A stretch of DNA of 64,000 bases from Thermoanaerobaculia bacterium (GCA_034665065.1 JAXDGL010000001.1:34691-98690), one strand, 5' to 3'; positions 15,924 through 16,391 are shown, counted from the stretch's first letter. Numbers and translations: made by a program. Notes: generated by a model not told the origin, from the sequence alone.

Positions 15924-15991
15924 AAAGGCGTCTTTTTCGTGGAACGGACGTGGAACATCGCGTCTCGATTACGATTTTCATAAACAATTGC

Positions 15992-16020
15992 TTGACAATA
16001 TGGATTAACGATCGCATATT
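15992..16020 (+). promoter_or_regulatory. Sigma70-like promoter TTGACA-N17-CATATT
   Basis: Perfect -35 hexamer in an AT-rich island upstream of the micropeptide. Confidence 0.55.
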
Positions 16021-16216
16021 AATGACAAGTTAAAACGATGATCGCCAGGAACTGGAAAAACACCCACGAAGCTCCGGTCAATGTCGAAGGTCGTCGTCTC
16101 TTCACTCCCCGCCGTAATCCGAATCCGAAAAACGATTTGCCGGCAAAGTCCGGCGTTGTTTGCCAAGTAGGCGCGACCGTGAGGTCCCGTACGGCATGAA
16201 AGGTGGTGAGCTTAAA

Positions 16217-16279
16217 ATGGCCGCAAAGAAAAAGGCAGCAGCGAAGAAGCCAGCGAAGAAGGCAGCGAAGAAGAAGTAA
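16217..16279 (+). CDS. 20-aa Lys/Ala-rich micropeptide MAAKKKAAAKKPAKKAAKKK (histone-H1-tail-like)
   Basis: AAAGGTGGT SD upstream, ATG 16217, TAA 16277-79, followed by a strong intrinsic terminator. Absent from the ORF track. Confidence 0.7.
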   Translation: MAAKKKAAAKKPAKKAAKKK

Positions 16280-16309
16280 GCATTTCAATCGACTTTTGGG
16301 GAGTCGTAC

Positions 16310-16341
16310 TCGAGGGGTCTTCGGACCCCTCGTTTTTTTTT
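16310..16341 (+). terminator. Rho-independent terminator
   Basis: cgaggggtc-ttcg-gacccctcg followed by a run of T's. Confidence 0.9.
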
Positions 16342-16391
16342 CGATAACCTTTTCCCGCGCTCTCCGTTCTTCACAGGTGGAGAACCTCCCC

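Follow-up and report, generated by a model that had tools for sequence, protein, structure and literature searches.

What would a bacterium do with a peptide made of little besides lysine, alanine and serine? The stretch of DNA analysed here, 64,000 nt from a Thermoanaerobaculia bacterium (JAXDGL010000001.1:34691-98690; "the window" is this stretch at its full length), contains a 20-codon open reading frame (ORF) for such a peptide, MAAKKKAAAKKPAKKAAKKK, and we are highly confident, judging from conservation and coding signature, that this micropeptide gene is a real gene and not a chance ORF. On balance, we read it as an independent, monocistronic protein-coding gene for an abundant, regulated, disordered polycation that would bind a cellular polyanion electrostatically, a nucleic acid (nucleoid DNA or RNA) being, by analogy, the most probable target. 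An earlier reading of the sequence, here the original prediction, had proposed a polycationic micropeptide gene of 20 residues with 10 lysines and no acidic ones, with its own ribosome-binding site, a TTCG-loop terminator and a TTGACA promoter, and had compared the product with histone H1. The ORF and terminator proved to be as described; the translation signal and promoter turned out to be parts of a larger arrangement, and the peptide proved to be no member of the H1-type families.

The gene and its ribosome-binding site are as follows.

16217–16279, + strand: micropeptide gene MAAKKKAAAKKPAKKAAKKK, 20 codons, ATG at 16217, stop codon TAA at 16277–16279
16198–16209, + strand: bipartite extended Shine-Dalgarno (SD) sequence GAAAGG-U-GGUGA, 11 of 12 positions complementary to the 3′ tail of 16S ribosomal RNA (rRNA)

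A coding signature under purifying selection

Short lysine-rich ORFs with an SD sequence were indeed found, as the original prediction had expected, when related genomes were searched (all genomes in the comparison are metagenome-assembled genomes, MAGs). At 95 of 99 genome loci, an automatic filter with a lysine threshold of 30% passed such an ORF 5–8 nt downstream of GGTGA, this spacing to the start codon being kept in all 95. The four loci that failed the filter also carry the ORF, two of them cut by the contig end and two being serine-rich with less than 30% lysine. Of 80 metagenome contigs, 76 also have such an ORF; in three others it runs off the contig, and in the last the match sits at the contig's very end. 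Family members span 17–35 residues, and TAA closes the frame at 90 of 95 loci.

Evidence that selection on these ORFs acts at the level of the peptide comes from 89 distinct sequences. AAR-AAR hexamers occupy codon phases 0, 1 and 2 in 466, 3 and 1 cases, respectively, so that the spacers between lysine pairs are all multiples of three. Serine is written with two unrelated codon families (TCN, 272; AGY, 101), and the four alanine codons are used about equally. Among 13 phylogenetically independent close pairs, 24 single-base changes are synonymous and 3 nonsynonymous, as compared to the 22% synonymous changes expected under random mutation. A kept frame, an excess of synonymous changes and the conservation of start, stop and SD together mark a protein-coding gene, and it is because of this conservation and coding signature that we do not regard the 20-codon ORF as a product of chance.

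What is conserved in the peptide? The pooled family composition is 46.5% Lys, 24% Ala, 19% Ser, 5% Gly, 3% Thr, 2% Pro and 0.7% Arg, with Val or Glu at one per thousand residues; Asp, Cys, His, Asn, Gln, aromatic and large hydrophobic residues are all absent from the pool. Both ends follow a pattern, MA[ATS]KK at the N-terminus and KKxxKK[K/R] at the C-terminus, and in-frame insertions and deletions (indels) are frequent. Across more than 150 independent sequences, purifying selection maintains a polycationic composition of Lys, Ala and Ser; it acts on the composition, charge and both ends of the peptide rather than on the exact sequence.

The suspicion that gene callers would miss such a gene was borne out. 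Seven family peptides, MAAKKKAAAKKPAKKAAKKK included, were looked up by exact match in a collection of ~15 billion predicted proteins and none was present; the family has therefore never been called as a gene. Scans of four family peptides against Pfam (E ≤ 1) and NCBIfam (E ≤ 10) returned zero matches. A profile built from 36 family peptides likewise returned zero matches, even in the window's own genome, so this type of search is blind on a composition of this kind.

Two other ways of reading the locus were considered and set aside. The in-frame ATG farther upstream, at 16196, was rejected as a start: since the spacing between SD and ATG varies, most species have it in another frame. A programmed −1 frameshift at AAG-AAA-AAG was also rejected: the motif is genus-specific, and the shifted frame reads through the terminator.

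Translation signals

The ATG is preceded by GAAAGGTGGTGA at 16198–16209. The SD of the original prediction, AAAGGTGGTGA at 16199–16209 (+ strand), is thus genuine, but the true site is longer. It consists of two half-sites parted by one unpaired base, in whose place relatives have C, CA or TA. The complementary 16S rRNA 3′ tail, GGAUCACCUCCUUUCU (ending in ...GGATCACCTCCTTTCT), was read from a complete genome of the same genus. Codon use of the micro-ORF for Ala, Lys and Gly deviates from the genome average the way that of 26 ribosomal-protein and elongation-factor genes does, only more strongly. Long SD and codon use together suggest, at the level of sequence, heavy translation of the micropeptide.

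Promoter, upstream repeat and terminator

The signals on either side of the leader and ORF are listed here from the 5′ to the 3′ end.

15939–15956, + strand: direct repeat GTGGAAC-GGAC-GTGGAAC, 11-bp period, candidate transcription-factor site, invariant in the genus
15966–15991, + strand: A+T-rich, UP-element-like block ATTACGATTTTCATAAACAATTGC, nearly invariant in 20 genomes
15992–16020, + strand: sigma-70-type promoter, TTGACA (15992–15997), 17 nt, CATATT (16015–16020), 10 of 12 matches in a consensus scan
16294–16308, + strand: conserved box TTTTGGGGAGTCGTA between stop codon and terminator, from the genus comparison
16311–16341, + strand: intrinsic terminator with 9-bp stem, TTCG loop and T9, from a consensus scan

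The TTGACA promoter of the original prediction is present, and TTGACA/CATATT is the sole promoter-like site that the consensus scan returned in 1.5 kb (0.4 expected); TATTAA at 16017–16022 offers an alternative −10 box. The distance needs a refinement: the promoter lies ~225 nt upstream of the ATG at 16217, so the predicted transcript has a leader of ~190 nt. This conserved, structured leader and the direct repeat upstream of the promoter had both escaped the original prediction. The −35 box and an ATATTA motif are conserved at the order level. G+C content falls to 0.43–0.49 at the UP-like block, as compared to 0.65–0.70 in the flanks, and the intergenic block as a whole is A+T-enriched (G+C 0.43–0.55).

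Upstream of the promoter, a GTGRAAC-N3-4-GTGGAAC repeat is found in 71 of 99 family loci, with conserved heptamers and a variable spacer. Of 46 cases in which the distance could be measured, 43 have the end of the repeat 35–36 nt ahead of the −35 box, a fixed phasing that fits an upstream activator. Two 7-bp direct repeats with a 10–11-bp period are typical of winged-helix response regulators. In the window's genome (G000), the only other intergenic copy, GTGAAAC-GTTCC-GTGGAAC (contig C3, 69113–69131, − strand, outside the window), lies over the −35 region of gyrB, downstream of recF and 13 nt upstream of a TACAAT box. It shares a heptamer with the micropeptide-promoter repeat and is invariant in 15 genomes of the genus (L161–L175). 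No repeat was found upstream of gyrB in any of 27 loci from other genera of the family; the gyrase link is therefore a genus-level curiosity with no family-wide evidence. A family-wide GTGGAAC regulon was also considered and rejected: nearly all other matches examined fall within extended open frames and seem to be coincidences of coding, PWNFPWN in an aldehyde-dehydrogenase-like frame being one example.

At the 3′ end, the terminator stem (16311–16332), CGAGGGGTC-TTCG-GACCCCTCG, has nine perfect pairs, seven of them G-C, and is followed by nine T (16333–16341), as expected of a Rho-independent terminator. Loop and stem covary in relatives, which have TTCG, GCAA or TCCG loops. A run of at least five T follows the stop codon in 80 of 99 loci, preceded by a predicted hairpin in ~70 of those, and the distance from the stop to the first such run is 8 to 64 nt. 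Between stop and terminator, all 20 genus-level sequences share the core TGGGGAGTCGTA without change, and 17 share the whole 15-nt TTTTGGGGAGTCGTA box; the box is partly kept in other genera, and it may form a small CGAC/GUCG hairpin or an extension of the terminator.

A structured leader RNA

Four helices were delineated in the leader, which also contains an ORF of its own.

16027–16216, + strand: 5′ leader of ~190 nt, its start placed from the −10 box
16036–16089, + strand: 5′ domain of the leader with stem P0, GAUGAUC (16036–16042) / GGUCGUC (16083–16089), 8 pairs by RNAalifold
16139–16154, + strand: hairpin P1, GCCGG-CAAAGU-CCGGC, from covariation
16161–16196, + strand: hairpin P2/P3, UGCC-AAGUAG-GCG-C-GACC-GUGA-GGUC-C-CGU-AC-GGCA, with a GNRA tetraloop, a predicted structure
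16038–16199, + strand: 53-codon leader ORF, MIARNWKN..., judged to be no conserved protein

Leader length ranges from ~45 to 200 nt across the family, and within the genus the leader is 83–94% conserved. The P0 domain, ~50 nt long, begins ~10 nt past the predicted transcription start and has the stem consensus GAUGAUC / GGUC(R)UC. Its outermost pair covaries (UA in 20 sequences, CG in 13, UG in 4 and AU in 2), and two further pairs change on one side only, compatibly, from U-A to U-G or C-G. Inside the domain, an inner CUGGA/UCCGG hairpin of the CUGG/CCAG type was seen by eye and left uncounted. A pyrimidine-rich linker leads to P1, in which five of six pairs show compensatory changes across 58 sequences; this level was reached by none of 500 shuffles, and slid controls scored much lower. 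On these alignments, helices P0 and P1 are supported by covariation.

P2/P3 behaves differently. Its variation is limited to the N of the loop (GUGA, GGGA and GAGA tetraloops) and to a purine-rich internal loop; a C-C mismatch is conserved, and the helices are invariant in sequence, so that covariation cannot support them. Nor is this invariance an artefact of the search pattern: among 80 metagenome contigs retrieved by a pattern that left the 5′ arm free, 79 have the identical arm. The hairpin ends 2 nt upstream of the SD, and a 40-nt leader block is invariant across the family and the metagenomes.

Is this a known RNA? At gathering thresholds, Rfam returned zero matches in the whole window. 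At E ≤ 10, its only match was L20_leader, with 19.4 bits against a threshold of 58.7 bits, over the 3′ end of the ORF and the terminator. A leader RNA of this kind attached to a micropeptide gene thus appears to be new.

Several regulatory readings of the leader were rejected. P1 followed by a U-tract does not qualify as a premature terminator, as conservation does not extend to the U-tract. For the CU-rich part, an anti-SD element was dismissed because duplex energies are no better than those of shuffles (mean z = +0.14), and mimicry of rRNA because the best match, at 18.3 bits, falls below the shuffle mean of 19.6.

The 53-codon leader ORF also called for scrutiny. Its frame is open in all 20 genus-level genomes, where indels are multiples of three, and of 168 loci, 74% keep it open over 40 codons or more. 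Across genera, however, the block from its ATG to GGTCRTC measures 46, 48, 49, 51, 52 or 58 nt, so that the conserved ends are read in different frames; third codon positions show no excess variation, and the stops scatter from −55 to +122 relative to the start of the micro-ORF. A conserved protein was rejected on these grounds. The AUG falls inside stem P0, which explains the conservation of the region. On this comparative evidence we take the leader to be a structured RNA rather than a conserved upstream-ORF protein; a regulatory, peptide-independent translation of the ORF may occur within the genus.

Distribution and relatives

Every one of the 18 other genomes of the genus has the 391-nt unit (15960–16350), at 83–94% identity. 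In a second genus identity drops to 72%, and beyond that the 3′ half can still be recognised, both in additional genera and in families that neighbour this one within the order. When 73 genomes of the family were sampled with a covariance model built on the leader core, 68 had a single copy each; a sister family gave one further copy, and elsewhere in the Thermoanaerobaculia class the model gave no convincing match. Its weak matches outside the family are noise or coincidences in coding sequence. The window's genome has the leader core only once. The exact leader-core pattern occurs in 98 stretches of a one-genome-per-species collection, all of them Thermoanaerobaculia or Acidobacteriota; these are MAGs of uncultured soil Acidobacteriota, some labelled "gp7". 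A looser, related pattern was found in more than 120 metagenome contigs, mostly from JGI soil and rhizosphere assemblies. A search of viral contigs for the unit gave no match, and a phage origin was rejected on that basis.

Two relatives have lost parts of the leader. In genome G150, the orthologous locus (L157, G150:C55 18300–18950), downstream of the same glycosyltransferase gene, has a GTG start and a leader of only ~45 nt without P1–P3, and keeps promoter, SD, terminator and a lysine-rich ORF, VAAKKKAMKKSAKKKKKR. In G146, the promoter lies immediately upstream of P1, so that there is no 5′ domain. Of all parts of the unit, the ORF and its SD are thus the most persistent. The G150 locus resembles a natural deletion experiment, in which the ORF outlives the leader hairpins.

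Possible function and alternative explanations

How might the unit work? In the model that follows, the start and level of transcription, translation, the binding partner, the role of P2/P3 and the regulator of the repeat are all predictions. Transcription would start at a strong sigma-70 promoter with its UP-like A+T block, probably assisted by an activator that binds the GTGGAAC direct repeat, whose centre is near −80, and the transcript, ~315 nt long, would end at the TTCG/T9 terminator. The leader would fold into the P0 5′ domain, P1 and the GNRA-capped P2/P3 just upstream of the 12-nt bipartite SD, a layout that most plausibly stabilises the mRNA and keeps the ribosome-binding site single-stranded; P2/P3 is possibly a feedback operator. 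A ribosome-binding site exposed in this manner would allow heavy translation of the 20-residue ORF. After removal of Met, the product is probably AAKKK...KKK; the form to be expected is AAKKKAAAKKPAKKAAKKK, with or without N-terminal Met or acetylation. With a net charge of about +10 and neither hydrophobic, aromatic nor acidic residues, the MAAKKKAAAKKPAKKAAKKK product should be intrinsically disordered and would bind a cellular polyanion electrostatically, without sequence specificity.

This reading draws on the mode of evolution of the family and on other proteins of the same cell. Selection on charge, composition and ends, combined with fast in-frame length change, is the pattern of disordered polycationic tails, such as the C-terminal domain of H1 and the Lys/Ala tails of HU, Hc2 and AlgP (PMC2848022, PMC9239181, PMC3643593). 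At least 12 larger proteins of the same genome carry K/A/S-rich N- or C-terminal tails (for example at G000 C8 36566, C8 265029, C1 147827, C4 344973, C22 80657, C17 67669 and C34 114057), some of which begin with MAAKKK or end with KKSSSKKK, and this type of module is therefore in use in the cell. Among the tail-bearing proteins are what appear to be two H1-like proteins of ~175 residues, bL17 and two proteins whose sequence past the tail looks MBL-fold-like. Polycationic tails thus appear to be a general feature of the lineage.

Some observations weigh against this interpretation. The leader core is more conserved at the nucleotide level than the ORF, and an RNA-level function could be equally or more important than the peptide. 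P2/P3 shows zero covariation, and its region is no more stable than shuffles (z = −0.48). The link between the repeat and gyrB is confined to one genus, we infer the binding partner from composition alone, and free unstructured oligolysine peptides are often short-lived in cells.

If the peptide acts alone, with what does it associate? It may be a lineage-specific tiny basic microprotein bound to the ribosome or to rRNA, with the invariant hairpin as autoregulatory operator. Such a role would suit a very small polybasic peptide that is single-copy and close to core in the family, with very strong translation signals, a codon use like that of ribosomal-protein genes and, beside its SD, an invariant hairpin that recalls ribosomal-protein operators; the leader words ACCGUGAGG ... 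GAAAGGUG, which match one contiguous segment of 23S rRNA in a colinear but split fashion, point the same way. Structurally integrated ribosomal proteins, however, do not turn over fast in length (17–35 residues here) and sequence with composition alone conserved; NCBIfam and Pfam gave zero matches, the similarity of leader to rRNA (18.3 bits) stays under the shuffle mean (19.6 bits), and the split match is post hoc, half of it being the SD itself. We regard this role as unlikely. A similarly low probability attaches to a bulk counter-ion or polyphosphate (polyP)-associated polycation that is no chromatin protein, and either substitutes for polyamines or Mg2+ or organises polyP in the manner of AlgP. 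Composition-only selection and extreme charge suit a non-specific counter-ion, and AlgP, with its H1-like repeat, is reported to localise to polyP granules (PMC9239181). A canonical spermidine synthase of ~290 residues was not detected in the genus (G000–G018), where Spermine_synth gave only weak matches inside proteins of 500–1000 residues; three complete or near-complete genomes lacked even these, whereas some other families of the class have strong ones. Yet this SpeE pattern is patchy and the search covered only this polyamine route, the neighbourhood contains no polyP or polyamine gene, and on sequence a counter-ion is indistinguishable from a nucleic-acid binder. A bolder version, to which we assign a slightly smaller chance, would make the oligolysine-type peptides an undescribed class of bulk polycations, a mini-protamine or a polyamine/Mg2+ surrogate, whose level is set by a sensing leader RNA, with GNRA hairpin and SD as a riboswitch-like or peptide-feedback operator, and by a dedicated regulator at the GTGGAAC repeat.

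Alternatively, the peptide itself might be of little consequence. The functional product would then be the ~315-nt structured RNA, a small RNA or riboswitch-like sensor, and the ORF secondary or incidental. Four leader helices, two of them with covariation, and a 40-nt block invariant in family and metagenomes are in keeping with such an RNA, which, with no Rfam match, would be new. The very strong coding signature argues otherwise, as do G150, which retains ORF and SD without P1–P3, and G146, which lacks the 5′ domain; the invariant block, moreover, ends in the ribosome-binding site, which fits translational control in cis. We consider an RNA-only function very unlikely. Least probable of all, in our view, is a cis-acting leader peptide, whose lysine codons would sense Lys-tRNA or the state of the ribosome and control read-through into the secreted-protein gene downstream. 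About 46% of the codons specify lysine, a terminator follows, and a co-oriented gene starts 51 nt past the T-run; mycobacterial polycysteine short ORFs (sORFs) act in this way. The fit is nonetheless poor, since the downstream gene differs in several genera and lies outside the lysine pathway, the terminator is strong (9 bp and T9), the distance from stop to T-run varies from 8 to 64 nt, and no alternative antiterminator was found. Purifying selection on the peptide also extends to its ends and composition, including positions other than lysine.

Relation to known systems

In a search of the literature, protein profiles and RNA families, we did not find a stand-alone gene for a Lys/Ala peptide of ~20 residues with such a leader described. 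The closest counterparts by composition are the H1-like bacterial proteins Hc1/Hc2 (Chlamydia), AlgP (Pseudomonas) and BpH1 (Bordetella), which like the micropeptide are lysine-rich, of low complexity with Ala, Pro or Ser, and very highly positively charged. All vary in length as repeats are gained and lost, and electrostatic binding of DNA or polyP is presumed or shown (PMC2848022, PMC9239181). These proteins have ~120–350 residues, however, several with extra domains, whereas the micropeptide is free and 17–35 residues long, and its gene, unlike theirs, has a dedicated structured leader RNA and a family-specific promoter layout. Membership of the H1, Hc or AlgP families, with whose repeats the original prediction had compared the peptide, fails at every point that could be examined. 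With 20 residues, and with no Pfam match at E ≤ 1 among four family members, the peptide is no linker histone H1/H5; Hc1/Hc2 are recognised by a profile, more than 100 residues and pentamer repeats, and the family has no profile match and 17–35 residues; and as opposed to the KPAA repeats of AlgP/PhaF, proline amounts to 2% and the N-terminal domain is absent, with PAKK or KKPAA units in a few members. By analogy, the micropeptide would work like lysine-rich H1-type tails, outside those families. Tails of the same composition, with AAKK, PAKK and SSKK motifs, are found on folded proteins, namely at the C-termini of HU/HupB/HupS and in Streptomyces DdbA (PMC3643593). Those tails are joined to a domain; the micropeptide is joined to none, and it can therefore have no tether role and must act alone.

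Resemblance to other small genes is looser. In size and basicity, the micropeptide is like bL37, bS22, Thx and eL41, tiny polybasic ribosomal proteins of ~20–35 residues that are highly expressed and often missed by gene callers. These are Arg-rich and position-specific, whereas the micropeptide uses Lys, conserves only composition and ends and has a two-fold length range; NCBIfam (E ≤ 10) gave no match to bL37, bS22 or Thx, and the frequent in-frame indels (17–35 residues) set it apart further. The attenuator leader peptides trpL and hisL and the mycobacterial polycysteine sORFs are also short, enriched in one codon type and followed by a terminator. The micro-ORF, unlike trpL and hisL, has neither an antiterminator nor a downstream biosynthetic operon, its geometry varies, and its peptide is under purifying selection. 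No conserved alternative pairing was found, leader–SD complementarity is no better than in shuffles, and in place of an amino-acid operon a secreted-protein gene follows, which is replaced in several genera. Long structured 5′ untranslated regions of highly expressed small genes, as in cspA-type leaders and the 5′ stem-loop of ompA, are similar in layout, combining an UP element and strong promoter with a 100–200-nt leader with conserved boxes, a 5′-proximal hairpin and an exposed strong SD; they have no sequence or Rfam similarity to the micropeptide leader.

If made as predicted, the micropeptide would rank with the smallest gene products of bacteria that are conserved and clearly under selection, and would represent, in free form, the kind of Lys/Ala tail by which many bacterial proteins are tethered to DNA or polyP. 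Its gene also illustrates how gene catalogues, even one of ~15 billion proteins, systematically overlook a near-core gene of an abundant soil lineage. The unit is an unusually complete regulatory package, with a phased candidate activator site, a new leader RNA with its invariant 40-nt block and a 12-nt split SD. Among the ideas that the peptide raises are nucleoid compaction, RNA chaperoning, ribosome association and cation homeostasis by means of a genetically encoded polycation.

Neighbouring genes and minor observations

The neighbours of the unit are genes for a GT4 glycosyltransferase, a secreted protein and a convergent CCA-adding enzyme. The secreted protein, product of the co-oriented downstream gene, has only a weak LiaF-like match. 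The neighbours give no functional clue.

Further matches emerged along the way. The leader words ACCGUGAGG and GAAAGGUG (window 16176–16205), 13 nt apart in the leader, are contiguous as ACCGUGAGGGAAAGGUG in the rRNA (rrn) operon of genome G003 (locus L258, reverse-complement positions 2782–2798), in a segment downstream of the 16S gene that we take to be 23S rRNA; a rough post hoc estimate puts the chance of such a split match at ~0.02. One of the tail-bearing proteins of the window's genome, 89 residues long, ends in KKSSSKKSSSKKK. In one frame, the invariant leader core (16170–16209) translates as RDREVPYGMKGGE. The best match to the leader model outside the family, at locus L155 (G304:C289), lies inside an ORF at the peptide GDREVPYGKV and agrees in 23 of 24 nt; the protein is presumably ExbD/TolR-like, and the match could be due to chance or could hint at an origin of the leader from a fragment of a gene.

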